Positions 7,261-46,857 of a DNA stretch of 64,000 nucleotides are shown in pieces (position 1 is the stretch's first letter; every line of letters starts with the position of its first letter). The notes beneath the pieces were generated by a model. That model worked only from the letters and a program-made list of their open reading frames with translations. It searched no databases and was not told the DNA's origin. The stretch spans positions 101,597 to 165,596 of the IMG/VR virus record IMGVR_UViG_3300045988_175595. One strand, 5' to 3'. A program made the position numbers and the translations under genes. This stretch comes from a virus.

Positions 7261-8382
7261 TTAATTTGCTTTAAAATTATAAATTGGTTTAATTATTTTT
7301 ACAATATCAACTGTATCTTTAATATTGTTTATAATTTCTTCTGAAGGTTTATATGCACCTTTAGATTCGTCTATTGTTGCATTATTACAAGTTGAACTAA
7401 AAATATTATTTTCTTTCATTGCATTAATATCATCTTCAACTTTTAACAATTCTTTAGCTTTAGAACGGCTCAAGATTCTACCTGCACCATGAGGAGCAGA
7501 ATAATTCCAATCTGGATTTCCTTTTCCTATAGCTATTATGCTACCATCTATTCTATTTAATGGTATTATTACTTTTTCTCCTTTTTTTGCAGATATAGCT
7601 CCTTTTCTTAATATTTTATTAGCTAAATCTATATAGTTATGAATTGTTGTAAAATGACTTTCTTCTTCCCAATTCATTTTATTGATTATAGTATCTGCAA
7701 TAGCCTCTCTATTAAATTGAGCATAAGCTTGTGCTATACCCATATCGTAAAGATAATTTTTTAAATTATCTCCTTGTAAATAGCATAAGGCTTTTGGAAC
7801 TTTATTTATTTTCGGATCATCATTTATTTCTTTAATAGCTAAATTTTGATAATATTCAGCTATTTGTTTTCCTAAACAACTTGATCCAGAATGTATAACT
7901 AAATATATATTATTTTCTGAATCTTTGTTCATTTCTATAAAATGATTTCCTCTACCTAATACACCTATAGATTTTTTTGCTATGTCTATATTTATATTAG
8001 ATTTACATTTTAATAGAGATAAATCTACATATTTATTATATGGATGTTCTTTATCTCTTATATTGGTTCCGTTAGGGATATATTGTTTTATACATTCATC
8101 TACTTTCTGTAAATCAATGTCCTCTAGTTTTTGTTTTAATTTTACTACAAACATTCCACAACCTATATCACTTCCAACTAAATTAGGAGTAACTTTGTCA
8201 TCGATTGTCATTGTAGTTCCTATTGTACACCCCGCGCCTGCATGTGTGTCTGGCATAATCTTTATAACAGAATTTTTATATGCCTCTTGATTACACAATT
8301 CAATAATTTGTGATATTGCCTCTTGGTCTATATCAAATGTATAAACTAAAGCAGTATTATATTGTCCTTGTAAAGGTATCAT
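7261..8382 (-). CDS. rtcB: RNA 3'-phosphate/5'-OH ligase RtcB (compact 373-aa form)
   Basis: Motifs MPDTHAGAGCTIGTT, GRGNHFIE and HSGS match the RtcB metal- and GTP-binding signatures. Confidence 0.8.
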   Translation of the reverse strand: MIPLQGQYNTALVYTFDIDQEAISQIIELCNQEAYKNSVIKIMPDTHAGAGCTIGTTMTIDDKVTPNLVGSDIGCGMFVVKLKQKLEDIDLQKVDECIKQYIPNGTNIRDKEHPYNKYVDLSLLKCKSNINIDIAKKSIGVLGRGNHFIEMNKDSENNIYLVIHSGSSCLGKQIAEYYQNLAIKEINDDPKINKVPKALCYLQGDNLKNYLYDMGIAQAYAQFNREAIADTIINKMNWEEESHFTTIHNYIDLANKILRKGAISAKKGEKVIIPLNRIDGSIIAIGKGNPDWNYSAPHGAGRILSRSKAKELLKVEDDINAMKENNIFSSTCNNATIDESKGAYKPSEEIINNIKDTVDIVKIIKPIYNFKAN

Positions 8383-8424
8383 TTAATAACACCTCTTTCT
8401 ATTTTTTATTTCATTTATAAGCTA

Positions 8425-8715
8425 TTAAAGAGTAACATCTTTCATTACTTCTCTAAATAATTTTATTTTCTTTTGAAAAACATCTAATTTATATAATTCT
8501 CCACCATAGCTAGTAGATGAAGTAATCATAAATTCTTGAGAACGTGGCCTATATATTAAATTAATTCCTTCTTGAATTACAATTTCTTCATATACGCCAT
8601 TTTTATCATATTTTTTTCTTGATAATTTTCCTAATGTAACATCATTATCAATAAATTTTGCTTTAATTACCTTAAGGTAACTTCGCCATTCTGATTCATT
8701 ATTTATACTTATCAT
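8425..8715 (-). CDS. Hypothetical protein
   Basis: 96-aa ORF in the track with no recognisable motif. Confidence 0.4.
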   Translation of the reverse strand: MISINNESEWRSYLKVIKAKFIDNDVTLGKLSRKKYDKNGVYEEIVIQEGINLIYRPRSQEFMITSSTSYGGELYKLDVFQKKIKLFREVMKDVTL

Positions 8716-8856
8716 AAATAACTTCTCCTTAAGTAAATATTAAAACTATATTAAAATTTACTTTATATATTTTATTATTATTTTTATTATATATTAATCT
8801 TATTTTTTGCAATTTAATAATACGCTATGATTATCTTTTATTGCTATATTATATTG

Positions 8857-8888
8857 TAAACAAGGATTAAGTATCCTCAAGTTTATCC
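8857..8888. promoter_or_regulatory. Copy a of a conserved ~35-bp dyad promoter/operator-like element (minus-strand AAACTTGAGG-N19-AATATAAT)
   Basis: Plus-strand sequence taaacaaggattaagtatcctcaagtttatcc. On the minus strand TTGAGG is followed 19 bp later by AATATAAT. Confidence 0.4.
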
Positions 8889-8977
8889 AAAAAATTTATT
8901 TTTAAATTCAATTAAGTTTATAATCCTTGTTACACTATGAACTTAGATTATTTATATATTATTTTTTATTAGCTATT

Positions 8978-9016
8978 AAACTTGAATTAAGGAATTAGTT
9001 CCCCTCAAGTTTAATC
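8978..9016. promoter_or_regulatory. Copy b of the same dyad element
   Basis: Plus-strand sequence aaacttgaattaaggaattagttcccctcaagtttaatc. Confidence 0.35.
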
Positions 9017-9168
9017 ATATAAAACCTATAAAGTAATTTTAATTATTTTCATTATTGTCTAAAAAATCTTGATATTTTATTTTTAATTTATCAATATCAA
9101 AATTTTCTAATATATTTATCATTGTGTCAATTTCTTTTTCTTCTTGATGCAAAAATAATTCTATTATA

Positions 9169-9531
9169 TTATAATCCATGAGTTGTTTGTTCTATTTTTC
9201 CTGTTGTAGGATTTCTAGAAAAAGTGTCTCCATATAAATTTGTAAATTCAACCATATCATTAGTAATTAATGGTCCTGACGGAAAATCTCCTGGACCTTC
9301 TATTGGAAAAATATTTGGACCAAATACTCTTTCCTTTGATTCTAATTTTGCTACTCTTATTTCTAATTCTTCGATCTTTTTTTTTAAATGTTCTATTATA
9401 GAACTTTGATCTTCTTTTTTATTCTTTTTTTCTTTAAATTTGATTGATTGATAACATATTGTATTATCTCTACAATCAAAACACATACCTTTACATCTTA
9501 TTCCTTGGTTATATTGTTCTTCGGAAATCAT
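9169..9531 (-). CDS. Hypothetical Cys-containing protein
   Basis: 120-aa ORF with CKGMCFDCRDNTIC near the N-terminus. Confidence 0.4.
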   Translation of the reverse strand: MISEEQYNQGIRCKGMCFDCRDNTICYQSIKFKEKKNKKEDQSSIIEHLKKKIEELEIRVAKLESKERVFGPNIFPIEGPGDFPSGPLITNDMVEFTNLYGDTFSRNPTTGKIEQTTHGL

Positions 9532-9890
9532 TTTTGTCTCCTATTTTGCCAAGTTCTAAAATTTTGGATTTTAGATAATAAATCTTTTGCTTTTCCATCA
9601 AAACAAATAGTTCTATCATCAATATTTAATAAAGCTGGCTGTTTTTCTTTACAAACATTATCAACAACTATATTATATTTATCTAGCCATTGTTTAATAG
9701 CTTGTATACCTTCTTCTGTAGAACATCTTGAAGATACAATTACTACAGAATAGCCTGCATTTCTTATTTCTTCTATTGCTTCTTGTATACCTTCTACTGG
9801 CGGATCAGGTATATTTGTAATTCCCTTCCAACCAGAAGTATAACTATGAATAACTCCATCAAAGTCAAATTGAATTATTTTTTGTGCCAT
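9528..9890 (-). CDS. Small HAD-superfamily hydrolase/phosphatase
   Basis: HAD motif I FDFDGVIHSY near the N-terminus. It overlaps the upstream ORF by 4 nt. Confidence 0.5.
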   Translation of the reverse strand: MAQKIIQFDFDGVIHSYTSGWKGITNIPDPPVEGIQEAIEEIRNAGYSVVIVSSRCSTEEGIQAIKQWLDKYNIVVDNVCKEKQPALLNIDDRTICFDGKAKDLLSKIQNFRTWQNRRQK

Positions 9891-10139
9891 AATATATCCT
9901 TTCTTTATATATATTCTATACTTGTCACCAAGGGGTTATTGTTTTTAAAAAGAAATATAACTCTTCTATTAATGACAATATTATAAATGCAAAATAATAA
10001 TGTTCAGTAGTAAAAGAAGTATTAAATATTTTATTAATAATATTTAATATAAAAATATTAAAGTTAAAAATTGTTAAAAAATAAGCAAATAGTAAATTTA
10101 CTAAAACATTTAAAACAATATCCATAATCTTTCCGTTAC

Positions 10140-10292
10140 TGAAAACTTATAAAAAGTTATAAAATAAACTTTTACGTTTCATTCTTGATTCAACGTGACC
10201 TATTTCACTATATAAGCTACTCTAGTTTGGTATATCACTCCACAAGCGTAAATTCCCGACTAACTATCGGTACATATCTATAATTGCTTTCA
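10140..10292 (-). ncRNA. Candidate TnpB-associated omega RNA (reRNA) / IS right end
   Basis: This segment is locally GC-richer than its surroundings (ttgattcaacgtgacctatttcactatataagctactctagtttggtatatcactccacaagcgtaaattcccgactaactatcggtac). It is placed where TnpB guide RNAs are normally encoded. Confidence 0.4.
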
Positions 10293-11465
10293 TTATGCTA
10301 CATTATAGATTGCTGAATCTTTTAAATTTAATGATGCTTGATAATCTCTATCTATTATATTTCCACATTCTGGACAAATATAAATTCTATCACTAAGTTT
10401 CAAATCTTTTTTAATAGAACCACATTCATGACATAACTTGCTTGAAGGGAAATATCTATCAACAATTCTTAATTCTATATTATTCCATTTACACTTATAT
10501 TCTAATTGTCTGCGAAATTCATATAATTTCTGTTGTTGAATAGCTTTAGATATATGCTTATTTTTTATCATACCACTTATATTTAAATCTTCTATTGTAA
10601 TAAACATTGGTTTTCTGTTTACTATTTCAGAAGTTACTTCATGTAAATAATTATCTCTAATGTTAGTTAGTCTATGATTTAATTTTAAAAGTCTTTTTTC
10701 ACTTTTTACAATATTACTTGTTTTGCAGTAACTATCTCCTTTCTTATTTATTAGATATTTTTTAGATATCTTACGTTGTAACCTACGTTTTCTTTTCTCT
10801 AATTTTCTTATCCTTTGTGTTTTATTTATATTATTATAAATATTTCCATCAGAACATATTGCTAAATCTTTAACACCTAAATCTATTCCTATTCCTTCAT
10901 TTGTAGGTATTTCTATATTATCTTCATATTCAATACCAACACATATAAACCAATTAACTCCGTCATAAACCACATGAGGATTTATATATTTACAATTAGT
11001 AGGTATTTTATTCTTTTCTGATAATTTAACCCAATTTAATTTAGCTTTATTTTTCTTTTTACTTGTTGCAATATTCTCTAATTTAACATGAGTATCAGTA
11101 AATTTAATTTTTATATTATCTACATAAAAACTAGGTCTGTCTAACTTTTTTGATTTAAATTTAGGAAATTTAGATTGTCCTTTAAAGAATCTTTTATAAC
11201 TCATACAAGCATCTTTAATAGCCTGTTTAGTTACATTATTACTTATAGAATATAGCCACTTATATTCTTCTTGTTTTTTTAATTTAGTAAATTCTTTTCT
11301 TAACTCATAGTCAGAAATAAATTTACCACCATTTTTATAATTTTCTTGTTGTCTAGCTATTGTCCAATTATAAGCAAATCTTTTTACTCCACAAAACTGA
11401 AACATCTTTGTCTGTTGTTTATTATTAGGCTTTAACTTAATCTTTAATGTTTTTATCATCCTCAA
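10293..11465 (-). CDS. tnpB: TnpB (IS605 OrfB-family RuvC-like nuclease with C-terminal zinc finger)
   Basis: GIDLGVKDLAICSDG RuvC-I-like motif and CHECGS...CPECG zinc finger. Confidence 0.75.
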   Translation of the reverse strand: MRMIKTLKIKLKPNNKQQTKMFQFCGVKRFAYNWTIARQQENYKNGGKFISDYELRKEFTKLKKQEEYKWLYSISNNVTKQAIKDACMSYKRFFKGQSKFPKFKSKKLDRPSFYVDNIKIKFTDTHVKLENIATSKKKNKAKLNWVKLSEKNKIPTNCKYINPHVVYDGVNWFICVGIEYEDNIEIPTNEGIGIDLGVKDLAICSDGNIYNNINKTQRIRKLEKRKRRLQRKISKKYLINKKGDSYCKTSNIVKSEKRLLKLNHRLTNIRDNYLHEVTSEIVNRKPMFITIEDLNISGMIKNKHISKAIQQQKLYEFRRQLEYKCKWNNIELRIVDRYFPSSKLCHECGSIKKDLKLSDRIYICPECGNIIDRDYQASLNLKDSAIYNVA

Positions 11466-11907
11466 TCAACTCCTTTACCATTTTTCTAGTTTTATTCGCA
11501 CGTTTTCCTTGTAATTTACAACTAAACACAGTAATTATTTGAACTAAATCTTCCACTAATTCTTGTTGCTCTGATTTTTTAGTGGTATCAACTATTTCTA
11601 TTTCACAATTATAAAGACTTGCTATATATTCAACTAACTCAAATCCAAATCTTAATAATCTATCTTTATATAATACGACTATTTTTTCTACTTTATTTTG
11701 AGTTATTAATCTAATTAATTGTCTCAATCCTTTCTTTTTATAATTAATACCACTACCTATATCTGATATTATTTCAAAGGGTTTACCTTGTGACAATAAA
11801 TACATTCTCATATTTTCAATTTGTCTTTCTAAGTCATCTTTTTGTTTATGAGAACTAACTCTACAATATCCTATTATTTTTTTATCTAATATTGGATTTA
11901 AATTCAT
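11437..11907 (-). CDS. tnpA: IS607-type serine recombinase TnpA
   Basis: The resolvase catalytic region YCRVSSHKQKDDLERQ, with a 156-aa length, is typical of IS607 TnpA. Confidence 0.7.
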   Translation of the reverse strand: MNLNPILDKKIIGYCRVSSHKQKDDLERQIENMRMYLLSQGKPFEIISDIGSGINYKKKGLRQLIRLITQNKVEKIVVLYKDRLLRFGFELVEYIASLYNCEIEIVDTTKKSEQQELVEDLVQIITVFSCKLQGKRANKTRKMVKELIEDDKNIKD

Positions 11908-11969
11908 AACTTGATTTAATTGTTCATGTGAATAATATCTATATCCATTAGTTGAAGTATGATGAGGCT

Positions 11970-12254
11970 TTAATTAGTTCTTTTTATTTTCATTATATAT
12001 TCTCTATCATCATCATCTTTAAAATATAAAGCATCTTTAAAAGAAGTAAATTTATTATCTGCATATTTTTTTAATAATAATAACATTCTTACTCCTTGTG
12101 CTATATATTTTGGTTTATTTGATGTTAAGTTCTTTTGACCAACAAAATAATAGAAATTATATAAAGAATATAAATTAATTTTTGCTATTTCTTCTCTTTT
12201 TTCAAATAAGCTATTAATAAGAAGTTTTGATCTTTCATTTAATAGCTTATTCAT
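11970..12254 (-). CDS. Hypothetical protein; the frame stays open upstream, so it may be a fragment of a gene disrupted near the IS
   Basis: 94-aa ORF. The same reading frame remains open for at least about 16 codons upstream of the annotated Met. Confidence 0.3.
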   Translation of the reverse strand: MNKLLNERSKLLINSLFEKREEIAKINLYSLYNFYYFVGQKNLTSNKPKYIAQGVRMLLLLKKYADNKFTSFKDALYFKDDDDREYIMKIKRTN

Positions 12255-12572
12255 TTTAATATCATTAGAAAATAAAATCTGAATAGCAGATCCATTACCT
12301 TTTACAATTAAATTAATTAATTTTCTTATATCAGATACTTCTGTATCTACTAATATTGTAATATTTTCTTTACTATATTGTCTTTTAAAATATAAATCAT
12401 TAAAAGAAGGACATAAAAAAACTCTTTATATCTACATTAGATTGTTCATCATTTAAATTATATAAATGAGAACCTATAGATACAGAAAATAATTCTAATC
12501 TATCTTGATTTTCTTTATTTGTATCAATTATATTTTTAATGCAACTATTGCATAACATATATATTTCTCCTT

Positions 12573-13052
12573 TTAATTTTCTATAGGAACATAAATATGA
12601 TATTTAAAATCAATAGGAAGATTATCTTCTACTATTTTACTTTCTTGTTTACTATTACAGTAAATTTTACAAGAAAGAACTTTTTCCATCTTAGTATTAT
12701 ATTCTATAGAAGTTTTTACAGGTAAATTAAGTTCTCTAATTTCATCAGCAAACGTTTTCCCTTCATTAAGAGGAGCAGTAATTTCAAAGATATATAATTT
12801 ATCTCTTTCAGATTTCTTTATAATTATACCTGGTATATATGTACCTAAAAATGTTGCTATACACATAGATATAATACTATATAAAGAATTATCTTTTGTT
12901 AATTGAACTACTCCTAATAAATAAAAGAATGTAGATAAGGCATTAAAAATGCCCCCAATAAAAAATTTTTCTTTTTGTAAATATATTGTTTTACAAGTAC
13001 TAAGGGCATTATCTAATGCTTTTAATGTAAATGCTATTAATATTCTTAACAT
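12573..13052 (-). CDS. UPF0316/DUF2179-like membrane protein
   Basis: An N-terminal MLRIL start with two transmembrane segments and a soluble C-terminal domain resembles the YebE/UPF0316 family. Confidence 0.4.
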   Translation of the reverse strand: MLRILIAFTLKALDNALSTCKTIYLQKEKFFIGGIFNALSTFFYLLGVVQLTKDNSLYSIISMCIATFLGTYIPGIIIKKSERDKLYIFEITAPLNEGKTFADEIRELNLPVKTSIEYNTKMEKVLSCKIYCNSKQESKIVEDNLPIDFKYHIYVPIEN

Positions 13053-13055
13053 TAA

Positions 13056-14837
13056 TTATACAACTGTTTTATCTGATTCAACTGAGTTTAATTCAATAAT
13101 ATCATTAAGATATTTTAACTTAATTCCTGTATTCTTAGATAAAGCCATAGAATAAGCTAATCTAATTGTATTCTTTATAACTCTACCGTTTATTTCATGT
13201 TTTGCTAACATAGGAATATTATTATATACTTCTTCTTCTATTCCTACTTTATTTGTACATTTTGCCTTGTTTAATATACTTTCCCATATATTAGCTCTTA
13301 CATCAGCTGTTAAACTAGCATATTCAATTGCTGATGTACATCTAGAGATAAAGGCTTCGTCTAGATTATCTTTAAGATTAGTAGTCATGAACATTATTCC
13401 ATTATATCTTTCTAATAATCTTAAGAATATAGCTGTCATTGCATTTCTTTCTAGATTCATATTATCTCTTCTAGTAACGAATGCATCTACTTCATCAAAT
13501 AAAACTACTGCATCCCATGCTGTAGCTATTTTCATTACTTGACTTAAGTTTTCTTCAAGTTGTCTTGGTTGAGTTCCTAATTCTCCTACAGATACAAAAT
13601 ATAAAGGTTTCTTTAAATATTCTGCAACTGATTCTGCTGTCATGGTTTTTCCACAACCAGCTGGTCCATATAATAAGAAGATCTTTCCTTCTCCTTTTCC
13701 AGCAATACTATCTAATGAAGGCATTTCATTAGTAAGTGCAGCAATAATAATATCTTTATAGCTATCCTTTATCTTTAATTCATTAAATGATTGTGAAGCA
13801 AATACAATATCGTTAACATTTTCTATTGACATCTTACACCATTCCTTGTTATTGAATGAGAATCCATAAACTACTGGAGAACATTGCCAATAATTATTTT
13901 CATCTAATGATATTCCTTTATTTTCTTCTGAGAAATCTATTCCATCATACCAATCATCATCAAGACTAGGATTCATTTCTCGGAAATTAGTTATATCTAT
14001 CATAACTCTTCCATTTATATTTGTTCTGTCGTTAGAGAAAAATCCAAATGTGTATGCAAATCCATCATAATATGAATATGTTGTATCTACATATTTCAAG
14101 TATTTCTTTCCTCTTTCAGTATATTTTTGAATGCTATCTTCAGTTAATTCTTCTACGTTAACCAAATCATTTAATTCAAGAATTTCTTCTATTACAGGTA
14201 CTTTAACATAAATATTATGTTTTAGAAATACATTTCCATTAAATGAAATTATTTCTAGACAAAGAGAAAGACTTTCACCGAAGAAAGATCTAGAATAGTT
14301 AATACTTTTTAATGTTCCAGCATAAGTATTATTTTCAGAATCTTTTACTGCAACTTTTTTATTTGGTCTTAATTTATTATATACATAAGTAAACAATGGA
14401 AGTCTTAATGGCTTTTCTAATTCATCTATATTCTTTATATTATTTAAAATATAGCTTAAATAACTATTAAGAATATAGCAAATAAAATCATTTTGATCAT
14501 CTGAGCTTATTGTTGAATCTTCTTCCTCTTTTAATTTTTCTATTATATCTTTAGCTCTAGATGCAAAATGATTTGCATTATTTTGAATAGTTCTTAAAGC
14601 TCTATCTTCTCCATACATTAATTCAAGAGCTTTGTACTCTTTCTTCTCTTTATAATAATATCCAAGAATATCATCTGAATACATACTATATCTTACATCA
14701 TCATCTGGTATCTCAAATATTAAATCTCCTTTATCAAATTTAATAGAGAAACCAGGATGCTCCATATCTTTTATTATTTTAGGAATTTTTAATTTCTCCA
14801 TTATTTCTATTTCATTTTTGTTTAATAAATTACTCAT
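13056..14837 (-). CDS. AAA+ ATPase with a large unknown N-terminal domain
   Basis: Walker A LLYGPAGCGKT, Walker B VLFDEVDAF and the downstream arginine-finger region are present. Confidence 0.7.
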   Translation of the reverse strand: MSNLLNKNEIEIMEKLKIPKIIKDMEHPGFSIKFDKGDLIFEIPDDDVRYSMYSDDILGYYYKEKKEYKALELMYGEDRALRTIQNNANHFASRAKDIIEKLKEEEDSTISSDDQNDFICYILNSYLSYILNNIKNIDELEKPLRLPLFTYVYNKLRPNKKVAVKDSENNTYAGTLKSINYSRSFFGESLSLCLEIISFNGNVFLKHNIYVKVPVIEEILELNDLVNVEELTEDSIQKYTERGKKYLKYVDTTYSYYDGFAYTFGFFSNDRTNINGRVMIDITNFREMNPSLDDDWYDGIDFSEENKGISLDENNYWQCSPVVYGFSFNNKEWCKMSIENVNDIVFASQSFNELKIKDSYKDIIIAALTNEMPSLDSIAGKGEGKIFLLYGPAGCGKTMTAESVAEYLKKPLYFVSVGELGTQPRQLEENLSQVMKIATAWDAVVLFDEVDAFVTRRDNMNLERNAMTAIFLRLLERYNGIMFMTTNLKDNLDEAFISRCTSAIEYASLTADVRANIWESILNKAKCTNKVGIEEEVYNNIPMLAKHEINGRVIKNTIRLAYSMALSKNTGIKLKYLNDIIELNSVESDKTVV

Positions 14838-14858
14838 GTTACATCAACCTTTCCTTTT

Positions 14859-15464
14859 TTATTTGTTTTTAAATTTTTCTACTATGTATAAACTGCTTAA
14901 AGCTGTTTGTGTTCCTATAATATTGTTTTCTATAAAATCAGCTACATCTTCTAACTTTACTTTAATAGCTGACTCTATTATTTCTTTTCCTACTGTATTT
15001 TCATTTGTAAAACTACCAGTAACTTTTGCTAGATAAATACTAACTGCTTCATCCGATATTCCGATGGAATCATATGCTGCACCTAATATTTTTTCTGTAC
15101 TTAAAACTTCTAATCCTGTTTCTTCTGCTAATTCTCTTATAATAGCTTCTTCTATATTTTCTCCTTCTTCTATTAATCCTGCTGGAAAACCATATTCAAA
15201 GCTATTAATAGCAGGTCTATATTCTCTGATAAATAGTAATTCATTACTATCTTCAAAATATGGGGCTATAACTATTCCATTAGATTTAACAGAATAATCT
15301 TGATAACTAGCTCTTAATGCTGCCATATCTTCTGGTTTATTTCTTGTAACCATATAATAACTATTAGTATCTTTACTTGTGCTATCTTTTCTATATTTGA
15401 TTTCACAAAATCTAAGATAGTCATTATTGGAATCCAAGATTTTTACTTCTTCTAATCTTGGCAT
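14859..15464 (-). CDS. NUDIX hydrolase (ADP-ribose / NAD-related pyrophosphatase candidate)
   Basis: Nudix box GFPAGLIEEGENIEEAIIRELAEETGL. Confidence 0.7.
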   Translation of the reverse strand: MPRLEEVKILDSNNDYLRFCEIKYRKDSTSKDTNSYYMVTRNKPEDMAALRASYQDYSVKSNGIVIAPYFEDSNELLFIREYRPAINSFEYGFPAGLIEEGENIEEAIIRELAEETGLEVLSTEKILGAAYDSIGISDEAVSIYLAKVTGSFTNENTVGKEIIESAIKVKLEDVADFIENNIIGTQTALSSLYIVEKFKNK

Positions 15465-15709
15465 TATTCATCATCCTCCTTTACTTTTAAATATATATAT
15501 AAAGTATAAAATTATTAACTATTTATTTGTTTTGTTTTTATTTATATATTTTTAGTACACTATGACAAAAATATATTTCTTATTTATTTAAATTTTTCTT
15601 TTTATATCAACCATCAACTAACTTGTTAATAGCTTATATAAAAAGAAAAAAGAGGCAATATAAGCCTCTTAAATCTTATATTATATTAATATAGATTGTC
15701 AATTTATTT

Positions 15710-16189
15710 TTAGCCTACAGAAACTGATCCTTCTTCAACTTCTTTTACATTTATATCACTATTTAAAATGTTAAAAGTTGCATTAAATCCATCTACTAGA
15801 ATTTGTCCTTCTACAGATATAGGTTTTTCATCTAATTTTTCAGTATTATGTCTTATTATATTATAAATATGACTATACTTTTCTCCTAATGTTCTTGCTA
15901 CTTCAGCAATACTTCTATATCTATGTATTTCTGGATTTTTTAAATCAATTATTGGAACACCTCTTTTTATTCTGCGTTCTTTTGTTGTAATCGATTTCTT
16001 TTTACCTGTTTCAATTTCTTTTGGTTTTACTTTATTATGTATTTTGTTTTCCTTCTTTTTTAAATCTTTCCTTAATCTTTTTTGTTTTAATTTTTTAGAA
16101 TTCTTCTTTGTCATTTTTTGTTCATACCTCCATAATAAAAAATAAGCTATTAATAGCTTATAATAAGTATTTTTATTTAAAAATGACAA
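15710..16189 (-). CDS. Lys-rich putative DNA-binding protein (HTH-like C-terminal region)
   Basis: A KKxK-rich N-terminal region and GVPIIDLKNPEIHRYRSIAEVARTLGEKYSHIYNII resembling a NUMOD/sigma-region-4-like HTH. The true start may be an internal Met. Confidence 0.35.
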   Translation of the reverse strand: MSFLNKNTYYKLLIAYFLLWRYEQKMTKKNSKKLKQKRLRKDLKKKENKIHNKVKPKEIETGKKKSITTKERRIKRGVPIIDLKNPEIHRYRSIAEVARTLGEKYSHIYNIIRHNTEKLDEKPISVEGQILVDGFNATFNILNSDINVKEVEEGSVSVG

Positions 16190-16207
16190 TCTATATTATT
16201 TTCAACT

Positions 16208-16642
16208 TTATAAATCTTTTACTAATATAGTTTCATTTAATGTTTCTATTTTTTCTATTCCAGCATTAATAATTAATCTACTACATATAGTACAAGGTTT
16301 AGGATTTAATATTTCTTCATTTTTTTCTTTATCAAATCCATATAAATATAATGTACTTCCTATCATATCTTTTCTTGATGCAGATATTATTGCATTCATT
16401 TCTGCATGAACAGAAGCACAAAGTTCATATTTTTCGCCACTTGGTACATTAAGTCTTTGTCTTTCACATTGACCTATATCATTACAATTTATTCTACCTC
16501 GAGGCGAACCTGTATAACCTGTTGCTATTATTTCATCATTTTTTACAATAATAGCTCCATAATTTCTTCTTAAACATGTTCCTCTTTGAGAAACTGCTTT
16601 TGCTATATTTAAATAATATTCTTTTTTATCGATTCTACTCAT
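16208..16642 (-). CDS. dCMP deaminase (cytidine/deoxycytidylate deaminase zinc-binding family)
   Basis: HAEMNAI and PCTICSRLI zinc-ligand motifs. Confidence 0.75.
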   Translation of the reverse strand: MSRIDKKEYYLNIAKAVSQRGTCLRRNYGAIIVKNDEIIATGYTGSPRGRINCNDIGQCERQRLNVPSGEKYELCASVHAEMNAIISASRKDMIGSTLYLYGFDKEKNEEILNPKPCTICSRLIINAGIEKIETLNETILVKDL

Positions 16643-16664
16643 TAGTAGTAAGCTCCTTATATTA

Positions 16665-16696
16665 TTGATTTAAGACATTAAGTTGCCTCAAGTTTA
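16665..16696. promoter_or_regulatory. Copy c of the dyad promoter/operator-like element, 20-60 nt upstream of the dCMP deaminase start
   Basis: Plus-strand sequence ttgatttaagacattaagttgcctcaagttta. The minus strand reads CTTGAGG-N19-AATAATAT-aaggag-ATG. Confidence 0.45.
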
Positions 16697-16867
16697 CTTA
16701 TCTATAACAAGTTCTAATAATCCATAACCTGTATGGTCTAAAACTACTAAGCTTTTTTCGTCTTTTATAGTGATATCACAAGAACCAAATTTTTTTAATG
16801 TTTCTGCTACTTCTTCTGCTGTTTTATCACTATAATCAACAGTTTTCATCAATGTAACATTATTCAT
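16694..16867 (-). CDS. Small hypothetical protein (57 aa)
   Basis: Hand-translated MNNVTLMKTVDYSDKTAEEVAETLKKFGSCDITIKDEKSLVVLDHTGYGLLELVIDK, flanked by two copies of the dyad element. Confidence 0.35.
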   Translation of the reverse strand: MNNVTLMKTVDYSDKTAEEVAETLKKFGSCDITIKDEKSLVVLDHTGYGLLELVIDK

Positions 16868-16885
16868 ATTTATTCCTTTTTATTA

Positions 16886-16917
16886 TTGACTTAAAGAATT
16901 AAGTCCCCTCAAGTTTA
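16886..16917. promoter_or_regulatory. Copy d of the dyad promoter/operator-like element
   Basis: Plus-strand sequence ttgacttaaagaattaagtcccctcaagttta, with the internal inverted repeat GACTTAA..TTAAGTC. Confidence 0.45.
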
Positions 16918-16975
16918 AATATATAAAAACAAAAAAGAATAGCTATAATTAATAGCTATCCTTTAATAATTTATT

Positions 16976-17932
16976 TTATTGTTTAACGGCTACACCATGT
17001 CCATCTATAGTATAACCATATATAGTAATATCATGTGCCATTTGGCCATTACTATATAGTAAATAATCTTTCCCTTGATCTTTTATCCAACCTGTAGCCA
17101 TACTTCCATCAGGGTTAAAATAATACCATTCATTATCTATTTTTAACCAACCTATTTGCATAGCTCCATCTGAATTCATATAATACCATTTACCTTCAGT
17201 AAGTATCCATCCAGTTTTCATTGAACCATCATTTTCATCACCTAAATAGTACCAATTTGCACCATTTGAATATTGCCATCCATAAAGCATATATCCTTCA
17301 GTATCGAAAAGATACCATTCATTATTAATTTTTTCCCAATCATTAGAAGTATAACTTCCATCTGAATGTTTATACCACCAACCTCTACTATCTAAAATCC
17401 ATTCTCCTTTTTTAGATTCTAGAGTTTGTCCAGTTAATCCTTCTACTATTTCTGTAGAGATAACTTCTTCTCCTATGCTATTATATAAATAGCTATCAGA
17501 AGAATCTACAAAACATATTTCGATTAACATAGCAGTAGATTTTGGTCTTTTTACCATAGCTAAATTTGACCCATCTTTAATTCCTCTATTTCTAAATCCT
17601 AAAGAAACTAAGTTATTCAATACAGCTCTTGCTTCTGGAATTTCTTTTGCTCCATAAGTAAATACTTCTGAACCAATTCCTCCACCTGCATTAGCATGTA
17701 AACTAACACACATATCTACATTATTTATATCTGCTTTATTATATCTTTGATATAAACTATCATTAACGCTTGAAGCATTTTGAGGTCTTAATCTAATAAC
17801 TTCATGACCTAATTGTATTAATTTTTCGATTATTAATTCTCCAACTGAATTAATAATTGTTTCTTCTGCTATATTTCCAACAGCACCTCTATCTGGACCT
17901 ACTCCATGACCTAAATCAATAGCAAATTTCAT
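16976..17932 (-). CDS. Endolysin: N-acetylmuramoyl-L-alanine amidase (Amidase_3) with C-terminal clostridial/choline-type cell-wall-binding repeats
   Basis: An N-terminal MKFAIDLGHGVGPDRGAVGN amidase_3 signature, followed by 5-6 repeats of the GW(I/L)xxxGxWYY(F/M)xxDGxM type. Confidence 0.8.
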   Translation of the reverse strand: MKFAIDLGHGVGPDRGAVGNIAEETIINSVGELIIEKLIQLGHEVIRLRPQNASSVNDSLYQRYNKADINNVDMCVSLHANAGGGIGSEVFTYGAKEIPEARAVLNNLVSLGFRNRGIKDGSNLAMVKRPKSTAMLIEICFVDSSDSYLYNSIGEEVISTEIVEGLTGQTLESKKGEWILDSRGWWYKHSDGSYTSNDWEKINNEWYLFDTEGYMLYGWQYSNGANWYYLGDENDGSMKTGWILTEGKWYYMNSDGAMQIGWLKIDNEWYYFNPDGSMATGWIKDQGKDYLLYSNGQMAHDITIYGYTIDGHGVAVKQ

Positions 17933-17997
17933 ATAAAATTTTCATCTCCTATTATTAGTAATAATTTTACTTAATATTATTACTAATAATATTATTA

Positions 17998-18519
17998 TTA
18001 TATACTTTTATCTAAATTAGCTATTAATTTAACAGCTTTTTTAGCAGAAGTATATACTTGTTTTATATTAACTTTTTTTATTGCTTCTTCTGGTGGATAT
18101 AATTCACTATATTCAGGAATAGGAAAACAAATACAATAGTCTCCTATTTCTCCTGTATTTAAATCTTTTCCCATTCCTTTTGCTGGAGATATTCCTTCAT
18201 CTTTTATCATAAGCTCATCAAATGTTTCTATTCTTTCATCATAAAATATTGCATCAGTTGACACAATAATATCGTTAGGGAATAAGCTTTTAACTGCTTC
18301 CCATTTTTCTTTTACATTTAATGCAGTAATAGTATCATTTAATGAACCTATAGATACTATATTTTTTAAATCTATTTCACTTAATAAAGTACCTAAAAGG
18401 GGACCAAAACTGTCACCTAATCTTTTTTCTGTACCTATATTAAATAATATTATTCTTTTATTTGTGTCTTTAATTTCTTTTTTTATTTGTTTTAAAAAAT
18501 TTTCCTCTGTTAAATACAT
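17998..18519 (-). CDS. YyaC-like (DUF1256) sporulation-protease-family protein
   Basis: The motif IGTEKRLGDSFGPLLGTLL resembles the YyaC GTDRSTGDALGPLVG motif. Confidence 0.45.
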   Translation of the reverse strand: MYLTEENFLKQIKKEIKDTNKRIILFNIGTEKRLGDSFGPLLGTLLSEIDLKNIVSIGSLNDTITALNVKEKWEAVKSLFPNDIIVSTDAIFYDERIETFDELMIKDEGISPAKGMGKDLNTGEIGDYCICFPIPEYSELYPPEEAIKKVNIKQVYTSAKKAVKLIANLDKSI

Positions 18520-18596
18520 CTTTCTTTTTCCTTTCTAATATAATATTTTATTATGTCTTACTTTATTTGTTCTTAATATTTTATTAGAAGGTAATT

Positions 18597-18953
18597 TTAT
18601 TTTTTTATTTGTTTTTGGGGGCTCTTTTTTTTTACTCTAAAATGATCTTTTATATCAATAAAGAATCCTCTTTCTTCTATTTCTTTTGTTATAAAATCAG
18701 GAATACCATAATATTTAAATAACATAAGTTTTCTTTCATTATTTAAAAATTCTTCACTTGTTTTTCCATCTTTATAACGATTATAATTATAATCTAATTT
18801 TTTTAAATAATTATTTAGAATAAATTTAGGTATATTACATAAATGACTATCTTTTAAGTCTTCTACATAAAATTCGTCCCCATTATATGTTTCCCATGTT
18901 CCTTTAGAATAATTTTCCAGATATAATTCTCGTATTTTCTTTACAAGATCCAT
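18597..18953 (-). CDS. Hypothetical protein
   Basis: 118-aa ORF. Confidence 0.4.
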   Translation of the reverse strand: MDLVKKIRELYLENYSKGTWETYNGDEFYVEDLKDSHLCNIPKFILNNYLKKLDYNYNRYKDGKTSEEFLNNERKLMLFKYYGIPDFITKEIEERGFFIDIKDHFRVKKKSPQKQIKK

Positions 18954-18959
18954 AAGCTA

Positions 18960-19445
18960 TTAACTTAAGCTTTTGCATATACTTCTATTTGCATATAGAT
19001 TAGGATTATCTTTCTTTGTTTCTTTTACTTTTCCATAGTCTATACCATTTTTAGAATATGCTACAACTACTTCTCCAATTTTATGTTCTTTATCTGATTT
19101 GAACCAATAAATCTTTCCATTTGGTTCAAATTCAATTCCATAAACAGTATAATCTGGAATTGGAACATCTTTCAATAATGTATTATAAGCAATAATAGCT
19201 TCTTTTATTTTAGCTGCTATTAATAAAGCTGCATAATTATCTATTTCTTCATCAGAAGTATTATCTGAAACAATAATTTGAGATTGTGTAATCTTTATAT
19301 CTACTCCGTTAATAGGAGCTATTCCTAGATATAAAGCTAATGAATCAGTTAATGGTAAATAATCATCATTATTTCCTTTTACATTTATTGAAACCTTATT
19401 TCCTGTTACATTTACATCTGCATTTATTCCTTTACAATATTGCAT
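18960..19445 (-). CDS. Hypothetical protein
   Basis: 161-aa ORF. Confidence 0.4.
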   Translation of the reverse strand: MQYCKGINADVNVTGNKVSINVKGNNDDYLPLTDSLALYLGIAPINGVDIKITQSQIIVSDNTSDEEIDNYAALLIAAKIKEAIIAYNTLLKDVPIPDYTVYGIEFEPNGKIYWFKSDKEHKIGEVVVAYSKNGIDYGKVKETKKDNPNLYANRSICKSLS

Positions 19446-19460
19446 ATAATTACCTTCTTT

Positions 19461-20009
19461 CTATTTTTCTAGTTCTTTTATTATTTTTTCTACTATTATA
19501 TCACAACCTTCATCAGTTGGTTCTACAACACTATATTCTATTGCTTTTTCATCTAATAAATTTTTCAATTTATTATCATTTGCAATAGCCTCTTCTACTG
19601 TTTTTTCGTTTCTGCCATTTGGATTAAATTTATGAATTCTTTTTAAATAAAAATTCATATTATTGAATTCATTAAATTTATCAATAACAGTTTGAATAAA
19701 ATGTGGCCTTTGTTGAGGATCGTATAGAGCAGATAAAACAATAGGACTATCTACGATAACAACATTTACTTTATCATATACTCTAAAGATTTTCCATAAT
19801 TGTTTACCATAAATATAATCTTGGCAATTAAAAACAGAACTTCTTCCTTCCCAAACCATATCTTTTACCCATTCTTGGATATTTTCACATTCTATTCCTC
19901 TTTCTTTTAATTTAGCAAATATTTTACTTGCGCAAGTGGATTTTCCTATTCCACTTCCTCCTAATAAATTTACTACTATATGTTTATCTTTATTCATATA
20001 GCTATTCAT
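19461..20009 (-). CDS. P-loop NTPase, putative nucleoside/nucleotide kinase
   Basis: Walker A NLLGGSGIGKST near the N-terminus with a small kinase-sized fold. Confidence 0.5.
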   Translation of the reverse strand: MNSYMNKDKHIVVNLLGGSGIGKSTCASKIFAKLKERGIECENIQEWVKDMVWEGRSSVFNCQDYIYGKQLWKIFRVYDKVNVVIVDSPIVLSALYDPQQRPHFIQTVIDKFNEFNNMNFYLKRIHKFNPNGRNEKTVEEAIANDNKLKNLLDEKAIEYSVVEPTDEGCDIIVEKIIKELEK

Positions 20010-20033
20010 CCCCCTTTATATTTGATATAAAAA

Positions 20034-20066
20034 AGACTTGAGACATTAAGTCACCTCAAGTTCTAA
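20034..20066. promoter_or_regulatory. Copy e of the dyad promoter/operator-like element, upstream of the kinase gene
   Basis: Plus-strand sequence agacttgagacattaagtcacctcaagttcta, with inverted repeat acttgag/ctcaagt. Confidence 0.45.
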
Positions 20067-20069
20067 TTT

Positions 20070-20276
20070 TTAATAGCTTATAAATTTAGATTCCATATTT
20101 ATAAAGTCATATTGTGGACCTAACTCAATACATTGAGTAGTATCTTTACATTTAGGACAATATATAGTTTTTATATGTCCTTTTTTCTTCAATCTAACCA
20201 TATTTCTTTGTATAGGAATTAGTTGACCACAACATGTACATTTTAACATAGTCATTGTTGTTTTCATTATTATCAT
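20070..20276 (-). CDS. Small zinc-ribbon protein
   Basis: CTCCGQ...CPKCKD, four Cys in two CxxC pairs. Confidence 0.45.
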   Translation of the reverse strand: MIIMKTTMTMLKCTCCGQLIPIQRNMVRLKKKGHIKTIYCPKCKDTTQCIELGPQYDFINMESKFISY

Positions 20277-20827
20277 TCCTTTTTATTTTTGATTTTTAAA
20301 TATTCTATTCCAAAATATATATTATCTAATGTTATACCTAAAAACATAAATATAAAACTAATAACTAATGGTATATTAATTATTATACATATACTAGATC
20401 CTAATAATGTAGCTATACTTGAATATATTTGTATATCATTATCATATCTATTTCTACTTTCTTTATTACTATATTTAATAGCTTTTAACGTATTTCCTCC
20501 TATTAATATATTTTTACTTATAGCAGAAAATATTAATGTATCTAATATATAAAATCCTATTAAATTATTATATATAGTTGCTATTATTACAGCTATTACA
20601 TATAGTATAGCTTCAGCTATTAAGAAAATAAGATAATAATTAAACAGTATATCTTTATATTTATTCCATAGATGTCCTATAACTATAGTAAATATACATA
20701 TAATCATACTATTAATAGCTATTAACTTATAGTCTATTGCATCCATTATGTGTTTTTGTATACATGGATAAGATATAGAGTAGAATATTGTCGAGAAGAA
20801 TGTTGCTTTTATTAAGTTATCTTTCAT
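20273..20827 (-). CDS. Polytopic membrane protein
   Basis: Multiple hydrophobic segments. Confidence 0.45.
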   Translation of the reverse strand: MKDNLIKATFFSTIFYSISYPCIQKHIMDAIDYKLIAINSMIICIFTIVIGHLWNKYKDILFNYYLIFLIAEAILYVIAVIIATIYNNLIGFYILDTLIFSAISKNILIGGNTLKAIKYSNKESRNRYDNDIQIYSSIATLLGSSICIIINIPLVISFIFMFLGITLDNIYFGIEYLKIKNKKE

Positions 20828-21426
20828 TCATTACTTTCACCATTCTTTCTTATTAATTTATTATTTAATTTTTATACTTTTTTGAATATTAGTCTTGACG
20901 AATGAATATGAGGAAAGATACAGTTTTTGAAGTTGTGGACACATTTTTGGACATAAAAACCCTTAATCGTAAAGACTAAAAGGGTTATGTAAAAACATAC
21001 AGTTTTTGTTTTGAATTGTATCTTTGTTACATCTATATCAGCTATTATAACTTAATTGTATCATTTCTGCCCCTAATACAACGAATTTAATAATTCTTAT
21101 TATAATATTAGCCATCTTCTTTATCGAAGATCAGAACTACCAGCCTCATATTTATTTTAACCTCGTAGGGAGTCTCACCTTGCTATGCACACGAGGGGTT
21201 TATACTTATAGGATATAGTCTATAAGTATAGATTTACCCCTTGCCCTTTGTTGACTTTTTTCACAACGTGGGGAGATAGACACCTTTTACGATAGGTTAT
21301 TTTTATGTGATTATTCCTTCTCAACACAACCTTATAGGATTTTTCGATATTAAATTATTAAAATTACTTATTTTTACTTTAATTTTTATACTTAATTAAT
21401 TAGAGTAAAAAATAGATATTTTTTTA

Positions 21427-21455
21427 TTGACATTGTATTTATTATTTGTTATTAT
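21427..21455 (+). promoter_or_regulatory. Near-consensus sigma70-type promoter on the plus strand (TTGACA-N17-TATTAT)
   Basis: Read directly from the sequence: ttgacattgtatttattatttgttattat. Confidence 0.5.
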
Positions 21456-21459
21456 AAAT

Positions 21460-21586
21460 ACATAAAGGTTAGTTTTATAAAGCAATTTATATTTCTACTT
21501 TACAAAACCTAAAAAACTTAATAAACATTATTTGAGAGTCTTTTATATTTTACTTTTCCACGGCAAGAATATAAAAGACTTTTTTC
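21460..21586 (+). ncRNA. Candidate small RNA between the plus-strand promoter and an intrinsic terminator
   Basis: No ORF is present. A 13-bp stem agtcttttatatt/aatataaaagact with a T6 tract lies at 21537-21586. Confidence 0.3.
21537..21586 (+). terminator. Rho-independent terminator hairpin with U-tract
   Basis: Inverted repeat with loop ttacttttccacggcaag, followed by tttttt. Confidence 0.5.
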
Positions 21587-21864
21587 TTGTATTTAATTTT
21601 ACACTATTTTTTCTTTTTTGTCCATATATATTTAAAATATATATTATTATACCTACAAATCATACTATTTTTATATTAATGAAAGGATGATGTATATGAT
21701 TAAACATTTCAGCTAAATTATTTAATCTTTTTATTAATATGACTTGTAGATATAATATTATATACTTACAAAAACTAACACCCTTAAAAAAAGAAACAAA
21801 TAACGGCCAAATTATTTAAATATTTTATTTAAAGAGTGTTAGTTAAATTATATATTATTATATT

Positions 21865-21900
21865 AATTTCGCTAAATTTGTGTTTAGCGAAATATTTTAT
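21865..21900. terminator. Terminator-like hairpin (11-bp stem atttcgctaaa/tttagcgaaat) just past the stop of the 21904-22089 gene
   Basis: A perfect inverted repeat followed by a T-rich tract on the plus strand. Confidence 0.45.
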
Positions 21901-21903
21901 TAT

Positions 21904-22089
21904 TTAAAATATTAGAATTACTTCTATTATTATTAATAAGAAGCATAAGTAAAATTGAAAAGCTATAAAAGCAAAAAAAGCTATTACGAAACATATTAAT
22001 CCAAAAACTAATCTTAAAGTAAAAGCTATATTCTTTTTTATATATATTGAAAATGCTATTGTTAATAATAATGCTATTAATTCATACAA
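21904..22089 (-). CDS. Small membrane protein
   Basis: 61-aa hydrophobic ORF. Confidence 0.35.
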   Translation of the reverse strand: MYELIALLLTIAFSIYIKKNIAFTLRLVFGLICFVIAFFAFIAFQFYLCFLLIIIEVILIF

Positions 22090-28478: not shown

Positions 28479-29009
28479 TTATTGTCTTTTTTCTTCTTCT
28501 CTATCTTTCATTTCTTCTTCAAAAATTTCAGTTATATCTTTAAAATTCTTATTTAATAACTTCATTTTTTCTAAGTCTTCAAGAGCTTCTTCTTTTGTTA
28601 TTCTTTCTTCATCTACAAAAACTGAATACAATACTGCTACTCCACATTTATATCCTTGTTCAAATGTGCTTTTATTATAAAGTCTCATTCTTTTTACATC
28701 TTTAGGAACTTCATCTTTATCTTTGTCTAAAATACCTATACATACAGCTGTTAAACTATCAGGTTCTAATTCTGTTTTACCTGCATCTCTAACTGTATAT
28801 TTTGGATATTTATTAGCATATTCTTCTAGTTTATTTTGTGGACAATCTAATACTATTTTAGTTTGATTACTTTCCATATGTTTGCTAATTAATTCTTTAT
28901 CTTCACAATTATAAAGATAAGATTCAATAGCATGTCCCACTTGACCTGCTACTTTACCTGAAGACATTTTTAAATCTCCATTAACAAGTATATACATTGC
29001 TAAATTCAT
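28479..29009 (-). CDS. Peptidyl-tRNA hydrolase, PTH2 family
   Basis: YILVNGDLKMSSGKVAGQVGHA and RDAGKTELEPDSLTAV match the conserved PTH2 motifs. Confidence 0.65.
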   Translation of the reverse strand: MNLAMYILVNGDLKMSSGKVAGQVGHAIESYLYNCEDKELISKHMESNQTKIVLDCPQNKLEEYANKYPKYTVRDAGKTELEPDSLTAVCIGILDKDKDEVPKDVKRMRLYNKSTFEQGYKCGVAVLYSVFVDEERITKEEALEDLEKMKLLNKNFKDITEIFEEEMKDREEEKRQ

Positions 29010-43099: not shown

Positions 43100-43169
43100 A
43101 TAAATAAGCTATTAATAAGTAGCTTAGATCTATCTACTATTAATAGCTTATGTTATTATTTATAGAGTT

Positions 43170-44762: not shown

Positions 44763-44794
44763 ATTATCACCTCACTTTATAATCTATTAATAGC

Positions 44795-46777: not shown

Positions 46778-46857
46778 GAATTTTTATCTTTCTCCTTTTT
46801 ATTATATTTATATATAAAAATAAGCCATATAAATTATGACTCCTTTAATAGCTTATT

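Follow-up and report, generated by a model that had tools for sequence, protein, structure and literature searches.

A five-copy intergenic repeat with a shared predicted RNA hairpin in the genome of a gut phage

Several described systems invite comparison with short intergenic elements that recur within a phage genome. RNase III processing hairpins of phage early mRNAs, such as the T7 R1.1-type sites and those of Bacillus phage SP82, usually have a helix of about 20 bp with an internal loop. Lambda-type nut/boxB hairpins lie downstream of promoters and upstream of terminators, in two copies. The stoperators and start-associated sequences of mycobacteriophages are 13-17 bp long, form no hairpin, and occur in 10-30 copies, the stoperators being bound on DNA by the phage repressor. 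Promoter-early stem-loop (PeSL) cassettes of T4-like phages (Arbiol et al., 2010, PMC2839356; Comeau et al., 2014, PMC4122927) consist of a stem-loop terminator, an AT-rich UP region, and a consensus sigma-70 early promoter (PMC2839356). Here, we analyzed a 64,000-nt stretch of the IMG/VR virus record IMGVR_UViG_3300045988_175595 (positions 101,597 to 165,596; hereafter the window, whose numbering is used throughout), and in particular an intergenic element that occurs in it five times, as copies A to E. All scans of the phage cover these 64 kb of a 245-kb genome, with the other 181 kb (three quarters) lying outside them. The element is probably a regulatory signal peculiar to the phage and placed where gene cassettes meet. 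As the best supported of the readings considered, we tentatively propose an intergenic stem-loop cassette specific to this lineage, whose 5' arm and loop are constrained in sequence and which may act on the transcript.

All five copies are found on the minus (sense) strand, each of them between genes, in a region of which 88% is coding (Table 1). Four of them carry the core AAACTTGAGG and the fifth carries GAACTTGAGG, and the longer pattern ACTTGAGG-NNN-MYTAAT matches all five exactly (5 observed versus 0 in 300 shuffles). In a MAFFT alignment of the copies, the invariant columns are AACTTGAGG, A19 (three bases later), TAAT, T29, and C35. A covariance model built from the five copies scores them at 46.5-61.7 bits, and the next best site in the window reaches 17.5 bits with filters off. 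The repeat is real and non-random, and the family has exactly five members in the 64 kb, grouped at three loci within 8.8-20.1 kb. A sequence-only reading of this DNA had reported five copies of a shared minus-strand core, and the exact matches, the covariance model, and the shuffles (0 of 300) all bear this out. It had also named the downstream genes correctly, namely the open reading frame (ORF) 8425-8715 for copies A and B, a 57-aa ORF for C, a dCMP deaminase (Pfam PF00383) for D, and a P-loop kinase for E (AAA_28, named nicotinamide riboside kinase by a JGI source). The distance to the start codon is near-constant in C, D, and E (49, 53, and 54 nt), leaving only 20-26 nt between hairpin and ATG. 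Direct copies form pairs: A and B stand in tandem, 128 nt apart, in a 323-nt gap before the ORF96-RtcB-tRNA block, and C and D, 221 nt apart, enclose the 57-aa ORF, an ORFan whose sole match among 5.8 billion protein clusters is itself. The earlier view of one cis-element class is supported by the shared orientation, the intergenic position, and the 49-54 nt before three starts, but the type assigned to it, a promoter with an operator, is not supported.

Table 1. Positions, sequences, and surroundings of the five copies and of other features in the window.
Feature	Position	Strand	Sequence or type	Score or fold	Context
Copy A	8978..9012	-	AAACTTGAGGGGAACTAATTCCTTAATTCAAGTTT	55.1 bits; hairpin -15 kcal/mol, z -4.6, most stable of the five	starts 26 nt past stop of ORF 9039-9179; 297 nt before ATG at 8715
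Copy B	8858..8884	-	AAACTTGAGGATACTTAATCCTTGTTT	46.5 bits; GAGGAU/AUCCUU and AAAC/GUUU with UU bulge, -7.1 kcal/mol	128 nt downstream of copy A; 169 nt before ATG at 8715 (ORF 8425-8715)
Copy C	16888..16916	-	AAACTTGAGGGGACTTAATTCTTTAAGTC	61.7 bits	12 nt past terminator-like hairpin; 49 nt before ATG of 57-aa ORFan
Copy D	16667..16695	-	AAACTTGAGGCAACTTAATGTCTTAAATC	58.9 bits	first bases overlap TAA stop of 57-aa ORF; 53 nt before dCMP deaminase ATG
Copy E	20035..20063 (to 20027 with T-run)	-	GAACTTGAGGTGACTTAATGTCTCAAGTC then TTTTTTAT	51.6 bits	6 nt past stop of ORF 20070-20276; 54 nt before P-loop kinase ATG
Core of A-D	8875-8884, 9003-9012, 16686-16695, 16907-16916	-	AAACTTGAGG		
Core of E	20054-20063	-	GAACTTGAGG		
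57-aa ORF	16694..16867	-	ORFan		between direct copies C and D
Terminator-like site	16934..16964	-	hairpin and T-run		after endolysin gene, directly upstream of copy C
HTH protein	15710-16189	-	ORF, TTG start		
ATAAGCTATTAA	57297-57308, 53782-53793, 52343-52354, 51931-51942, 49707-49718, 46845-46856, 46277-46288, 44787-44798, 43140-43151, 20070-20081, 16150-16161, 15626-15637, 12239-12250	-	12-mer		
ATAAGCTATTAA	1516, 8417, 12206, 16142, 18952, 29818, 43104	+	12-mer		
Second element	57468-57455, 57400-57387, 57270-57257, 56622-56609; variant ~52988-52975	-	ACAAAAAnC...TATCTTRATTACGnGTT		intergenic
Tandem repeat	52430-52578	-	four copies of GCTGGTTTAAATAATATATATTATATTTA	periods 29 and 39 nt	upstream of ORF 51981-52220
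RNA-repair/translation block	621-8382	-	18-19 tRNA genes and RtcB		
RtcB ligase	7261-8382				in RNA-repair/translation block
518-aa protein	1536-3092		PHROG 'RNA-binding protein'; DUF2828, DUF7788, VWA		in tRNA/RtcB block
HAD domain	9528-9890		'Swiss-army-knife RNA repair' type	weak match	near RtcB block
Peptidyl-tRNA hydrolase	28479-29009		PTH2		near RtcB block
IS607-type insertion sequence	10131-11968	-			within phage
TnpA	11437-11907		serine resolvase, PF00239		in IS607-type insertion sequence
TnpB-like	10293-11465		phrog_506		in IS607-type insertion sequence
RAGATH-18 RNA	10182-10246	-	presumably TnpB guide (omega) RNA	69 bits	just 3' of TnpB-like gene
Non-coding gap	20828-21903				G+C-rich part ~21060-21360 (-)
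Non-coding gap	52907-53981				
Hammerhead-like sequence	56517-56587	-	type III, CUGAUGA...GAAAC	RF00008, 32.6 bits, E=4e-4 (gathering score 48.5)	in gap 56478-56642

Folded as sense-strand RNA, all five copies adopt one architecture (-6.8 to -15 kcal/mol, z -1.5 to -4.6). In the common dyad, the invariant 5' arm (A)CTTGAGGnn, with the core UUGAGGnn, pairs with a variable, pyrimidine-rich 3' arm, nnYCTYAAGT, through many G-U pairs, and the loop contains ACUUAA(U). The stems have 8-10 pairs (14-16 in copy A) and the loops 4-8 nt. Conservation is asymmetric, in that the 5' arm and the loop are invariant whereas the 3' arm differs in each copy with its pairing kept. Columns 27-30 hold a pyrimidine in every copy, opposite G or A, and positions 13 and 30 form a G-U pair in four copies. 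Where the 5' arm is not conserved, pair 17-26 reads A-U, G-U, C-G, G-U, and U-G across the copies and pair 18-25 reads U-A, G-U, A-U, G-U, and G-U, readings that need a one-base shift of copy B which the gapless model alignment does not make. We estimate from base composition that the chance of the 17-26 pairing alone would be about 0.01. Copy D folds at -6.8 kcal/mol as RNA versus -0.4 kcal/mol with DNA parameters, copy C switches to the other dyad with DNA parameters, and the antisense RNAs of C and D give weaker, different folds. The sense-strand RNA hairpin is thus the sole structure common to the five. In copy E, a stem of 10 pairs is followed by CTTTTTTAT (T6) and scores as intrinsic-terminator-like, while no T-run follows the hairpins of A, B, C, and D, so that this feature of an intrinsic terminator belongs to E alone. 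The elements match no family in Rfam 15 at the gathering threshold, nor at E<=1 over positions 8000-22000.

The layout of transcription units gives the copies a further setting. On both strands of 8300-21000 (12.7 kb), only three terminator-like sites were found, at 15670-15650, at 16964-16934, and at copy E, and a second scan agrees. The site upstream of copy C is built from an inverted pair of AGCTATTAA-type motifs. Units would then read from E and the kinase through the endolysin to a terminator, followed by C, the ORFan, D, and the dCMP deaminase plus one ORF to the next terminator. Because copy C lies 12 nt past a terminator, where a new transcription unit would begin, and the sites are intergenic and gene-oriented, a shared regulatory role is plausible. 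After the terminator at 15670-15650, the slot equivalent to that of copy C is held by a 12-mer, ATAAGCTATTAA, to which we return below. In the sole related contig found (L179), whose kinase is 64% identical, the slot before the kinase holds an unrelated terminator-like hairpin and T-run; here (L179 positions 9960-10001) the gene is preceded by GGAATCC-TATTAA-GGATTCC and TTTTATTT. A transcript-level hairpin is therefore found in the slot of copy E in both phages.

We propose that the selected feature may be the sense-strand stem-loop, in which the invariant 5' arm and loop, AAACUUGAGG-nn-ACUUAAU, would pair with the variable nnYCUYAAGU. The hairpin could serve as the recognition site for a phage- or host-encoded sequence-specific factor, mark the borders of small gene cassettes, and set the fate of the transcript. 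With its U-tract, copy E would act in attenuation or termination, whereas copies C, D, and E, which lie 20-26 nt in front of a ribosome-binding site (RBS), could, through processing or stabilization, give the RNA a 5' or 3' end that is defined and protected. As a by-product, the repeated sequence would offer homology for cassette shuffling, as do the PeSL elements of T4-like phages. We infer RNA as the functional form, a trans-acting factor, and the outcome (attenuation, processing, or stabilization) from the fold common to all five copies, the asymmetric conservation, the dependence on G-U pairs, the terminator-like copy E, and the hairpin in the corresponding slot of the related contig. The lack of a conserved -10 at canonical spacing and the direct copies around an ORFan, as in PeSL cassettes (PMC2839356, PMC4122927), point the same way.

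Several observations weigh against a role on the transcript and keep our proposal tentative. The share of paired cells is 82% versus 78.5% in shuffles, and 40 of 500 shuffles did as well, a difference that is not significant for five related sequences; the slid controls (<=52% paired) are biased because the structure was derived from the same five sequences. The G-U pairs could reflect C-to-T decay of a once-perfect palindrome, and the 5' arm could be constant for another reason, such as DNA binding by a protein or RNA polymerase. The stems are short and weak (-7 kcal/mol), a U-tract follows one copy only, and the hairpin does not account for T29 and C35, both invariant and placed at the 3' end of the helix or past it. 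Copy C, being 12 nt past a terminator, could reach the transcript by read-through alone, unless it has promoter activity of its own. No candidate RNA-binding factor was identified, and no relatives with the element were found that could show phylogenetic covariation.

Repeated intergenic motifs of 20-35 bp in phages are most often promoters, and the same positions fit a phage-specific promoter class in which AAACTTGAGG together with T29 and C35 would be read on DNA by a phage sigma factor, activator, or RNA polymerase, with transcription starting just downstream. The elements are intergenic and oriented as the genes are, the constant distance to the ATG in C, D, and E would give 5' untranslated regions of 15-25 nt, copy C takes the same slot after a terminator as ATAAGCTATTAA does after 15670-15650, and A and B stand in tandem in the gap before the ORF96-RtcB-tRNA block. 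In a concrete version, the element would be a promoter of the extracytoplasmic function (ECF) sigma type, with AAACTT/GAACTT as -35, a 16-nt spacer, and TYAAG as -10, and the dyad would add a second layer of regulation or be incidental. The arrangement GAACTT/AAACTT-16 nt-TCAAG/TTAAG is similar to the sigma-E promoter of E. coli, GGAACTT-N16-TCAAA (Rhodius et al., 2006, PMC1312014), agreeing at 5-6 of 7 positions of the -35 and, at N16, at 3-4 of 5 positions of the -10 in four copies. In copy B, however, the TYAAG position reads TGTTT (1 of 5), and conservation is strongest in the would-be -35 and spacer (GAGG, ACTTAAT) and weakest at the would-be -10. On the sense strand, the pattern AACTT-N16-TYAA matches nothing in the window besides A, C, D, and E, and its total of 8 occurrences compares with 6.6 expected. 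Neither a sigma factor gene, a cognate ECF sigma gene included, nor an RNA polymerase gene was found among about 60 proteins scanned in the window, which covers 64 kb of the 245-kb genome. A promoter would also leave the kept complementarity of the variable 3' arm unexplained and would make copy E a promoter that resembles a terminator. We regard a phage-specific promoter as a serious and close rival to the RNA reading, although on balance a rather doubtful one.

The promoter with an operator proposed in the sequence-only reading would correspond to a host sigma-70 (sigma-A) promoter, TTGAGG serving as -35 and an ATAAT-like hexamer as -10, with a palindrome embedded in it to which a repressor or activator of the phage would bind. 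TTGAGG agrees with TTGACA at 4 of 6 positions, but the hexamer said to lie at N19, (A)ATAAT/TATAAT, is not a common feature: AATAAT stands there in C and D only. Copy B has AATATA at N19, TATAAT at N21, and TACAAT at N16, and the hexamer is AAGTTT in A and TTTTTT in E, neither of which has a -10-like hexamer at any single spacing common to the others. As the genome is 25% G+C, AT-rich hexamers are expected by chance. Moreover, spacings of 19-21 nt fall outside the functional 16-18 nt, and within the latter range past TTGAGG no hexamer is conserved; the best candidate, nTCAAT, is without the critical A at position 2, as the hexamers at N16-18 (nTCAAT, TCAATA, or CAATAA) generally are, except in copy B (TACAAT, N16). 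Sigma-70-like sites occur in the region at chance level (104 versus 107 expected), and the five elements are not among the 60 listed, the other 44 being weaker. A transcription start past the N19 hexamer would, in addition, put the RBS of C and D at the extreme 5' end of the RNA. The operator fares no better, since the reported dyad GACTTAA-N-TTAAGTC is perfect in C only, matches at 6 of 7 positions in E, is degraded in D and A, and is absent from B. Its half-sites are not symmetrically conserved, as would befit a dimeric DNA-binding protein, and the 3' arm pairs via G-T/G-U. For these reasons, we consider a sigma-70 promoter with operator very improbable. The Lys-rich helix-turn-helix (HTH) protein that had been put forward as a candidate binder has no Pfam or PHROG match. 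Gene calls for it on identical ENA contigs give 134 aa versus 159 aa, and the palindrome ATAAGCTATTAATAGCTTAT (16142-16161) falls in the disputed 5' part of the ORF, so that the true start is probably further downstream.

The pairing of direct copies also raises the question of whether the element is a selfish or recombinational palindromic repeat, either REP/PATE-like or a PeSL-like homology patch, that moves small cassettes and has no dedicated regulatory role. Each of the pairs A-B and C-D flanks a short segment, one of which is an ORFan, the element is restricted to this phage lineage, and its hairpin form resembles the single-stranded DNA hairpins of Y1 transposases. Yet the window holds no Y1 (IS200/RAYT) transposase, only an IS607-type serine recombinase with TnpB, and the ends of this insertion sequence bear no similarity to the element. 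Neither target-site duplications nor empty sites for comparison were seen, and the population is clonal. An invariant 5' arm next to a drifting 3' arm speaks for functional constraint rather than recent copying, and copy D has no stable DNA hairpin. A purely selfish origin therefore seems unlikely to us.

Three further identities were considered and rejected. N4-type hairpin promoters have a stem of 5-7 bp and a 3-nt loop extruded from duplex DNA; here the loop length is 4-8 nt, the stems depend on G-T pairs, copy D reaches only -0.4 kcal/mol with DNA parameters, and C forms a different dyad. A CRISPR repeat or solitary mimic of a repeat unit was set aside because RAACTTGAGGNNAMYTAATNYYT gave only single scattered matches, 22 in GTDB genomes and 41 in JGI metagenomes, with a strict pattern that misses diverged repeats. 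IS200/IS605-type or REP hairpin ends were dropped as well, the window holding only the serine resolvase-type TnpA (PF00239) and TnpB. We also noticed that, 7 nt past the invariant GAGG, D and E have AUG, A and C have AUU, and B has AUC, and that A, C, and D read AUN-NCU-UAA, a two-codon mini-ORF (e.g. 16893-16885 in C and 16672-16664 in D); in copy E the frame extends over 14 codons, with its stop 5 nt ahead of the second kinase ATG. With AUG in only two copies, the mini-ORF idea was dropped, and the pattern is probably a by-product of the hairpin sequence.

Outside this phage, when IMG/VR, JGI metagenomes, and GTDB genomes were scanned for the exact pattern of the element, the matches were isolated and scattered, mostly coding or due to chance, and no contig had several copies. 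Homologues of the dCMP deaminase (79 IMG/VR loci) and of the kinase belong to unrelated phages, none of which has the motif, and on contigs with homologues of neighboring genes the best covariance-model score was 17.6 bits. In the literature, the literal sequence of the element turned up only in unrelated primers. The element is, then, a new and lineage-restricted sequence of an ordinary kind, that of phage-specific intergenic regulatory repeats, and it opens no long-standing question.

The phage itself has a window G+C content of about 25%, with genes almost all on the minus strand. The kinase sequence also occurs on a 245,223-bp contig, which together with the gene content indicates that the window is part of a jumbo phage with a Gram-positive gut bacterium as host. 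Judged from the amidase endolysin, which has choline-binding repeats, this host is probably a Firmicute. Identical fragments of the same phage are present in human gut assemblies (ENA). Contigs from 14 assemblies are 99.9-100% identical with the five elements unchanged, and the population is clonal. No close relative was found among GenBank phages; the sole DNA that resembles one is the IS607 stretch (Enterocloster phage CB457P1, 76% identical), which lies within the phage and has a RAGATH-18 RNA, presumably the TnpB guide (omega) RNA, next to its TnpB-like gene. Besides the dCMP deaminase and 18-19 tRNA genes with RtcB, the window encodes the NAD-salvage enzymes NAMPT, PRPP synthetase, NAD synthetase, and the nicotinamide-riboside-kinase-like P-loop protein. 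Copies A and B occupy the gap that heads the RNA-repair/translation block, which also includes a 518-aa PHROG 'RNA-binding protein', and near the block are a weakly matching HAD domain and a PTH2 peptidyl-tRNA hydrolase (Table 1). Two non-coding gaps of about 1.07 kb stand out. One of them (20828-21903) has an unusually G+C-rich part with a long predicted hairpin, whose fold z is only -1.75 and which has no Rfam match at E<=1; this gap could be an uncharacterized non-coding RNA or an origin region.

Other motifs are repeated in the window, and one is far more frequent than the element. The 12-mer ATAAGCTATTAA occurs 20 times versus 0.18 expected in the whole window, and its 9-mer core AGCTAWTAA occurs 74 times versus 6.5 expected. 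Copies of the 12-mer nearly all fall between genes and in many cases overlap the stop codon of the gene upstream, with the following start codon 19-70 nt away. At 16142-16161, at 43104-43151, and in the terminator 16964-16934 the motif forms an inverted pair or palindrome, and it follows the terminators 15670-15650 and 35630-35604. One copy (20070..20081) is 6 nt upstream of copy E, and the related motif AGCTAWTAA lies 3 nt past copy A (8966-8974) and inside the terminator before C (16949-16957). The related contig L179 also carries the ATAAGCTATTAA motif, with 14 cores in 10.6 kb, while a scan of IMG/VR for relatives yielded singletons only among the matches listed. As a candidate for the main promoter or regulator-binding site of the phage, ATAAGCTATTAA is far stronger than the five-copy element.

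A second intergenic element, ACAAAAAnC...TATCTTRATTACGnGTT, has five minus-strand copies. It has CTTAAT in common with the loop of the five-copy element, its copy at 57400 begins AAACTTAAGT, and the folds predicted for its copies do not agree with one another; possibly it represents a sister class of signal. A sequence resembling a type III hammerhead ribozyme, scoring below the gathering threshold of RF00008, lies directly 3' of one copy of the TATCTTGATTACG element. The AT-rich core of the tandem repeat GCTGGTTTAAATAATATATATTATATTTA resembles the early consensus of the virion RNA polymerase of the jumbo phage AR9, AAATATATATTAT-N6-G (PMC5312081), and this likeness is a hint that a non-canonical RNA polymerase of the phage itself may be in use.

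Hardly any work exists on the jumbo phages of gut Firmicutes, and the element together with the commoner ATAAGCTATTAA supplies concrete candidate sites for transcription signals in such a phage. The element co-marks a small set of units, namely the RtcB and tRNA block, the ORFan, the dCMP deaminase, and the stretch from the NAD-salvage kinase through the endolysin. As a bolder conjecture that we think has little chance of being correct, the hairpins could be docking sites of an undescribed RNA-level control system, in which AAACUUGAGG..ACUUAAU would be recognized by a protein of the phage that switches termination, processing, or translation where cassettes meet, following a nut/boxB-like or Cas6-like logic, in a phage that otherwise appears to use compact non-sigma-70 promoters (ATAAGCTATTAA, AT-rich AR9-like repeats).

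Set against the known systems, the element shares traits with several of them. Like RNase III processing sites, it consists of a few related stem-loops between cistrons, on the sense strand only and near the next RBS, but the predicted stems here have 8-10 pairs (14-16 in A). An invariant 5' arm and loop opposite a 3' arm that keeps nothing but its complementarity is the pattern expected if a protein reads one face of a hairpin, as with nut/boxB; here, however, no boxA-like partner and no N-like or Q-like gene was identified, and copy C lies after rather than before a terminator. With the repeats of mycobacteriophages, the element has in common that they are asymmetric, orientation-specific short repeats by the stop or start codons of a subset of genes. 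As in sigma-E promoters, GAACTT/AAACTT is followed exactly 16 nt on by TCAAG/TTAAG/TTAAA/TTAAT in 4 of 5 copies, but the spacer is more conserved than the -10, no ECF sigma gene was found in the window, and the consensus comes from E. coli whereas the host here is probably a Gram-positive Firmicute. An identity with AR9-type promoters (AAATATATATTAT-N6-G for the early class, and AACA-N6-TA/G; PMC5312081) was rejected, the sequences being unlike. By analogy, the PeSL cassette appears to be the nearest documented counterpart, although its sigma-70 consensus and its order of stem-loop then promoter are not found here. In PeSL cassettes, the sigma-70 consensus lies downstream of a separate G/C-rich terminator stem-loop, whereas here there is no such consensus, the conserved box and the hairpin overlap, C, D, and E leave no space for a promoter between hairpin and RBS, and a U-tract follows one copy only. 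Regarding the recombination seen with PeSL cassettes, C and D flank the 57-aa ORFan and the region holds accessory genes, and the contigs of the population are identical. PeSL cassettes and the element are both short repeated intergenic motifs that join a stem-loop to promoter-like sequence in regions of accessory genes, and both flank ORFans in direct orientation, at the junction between transcription units.

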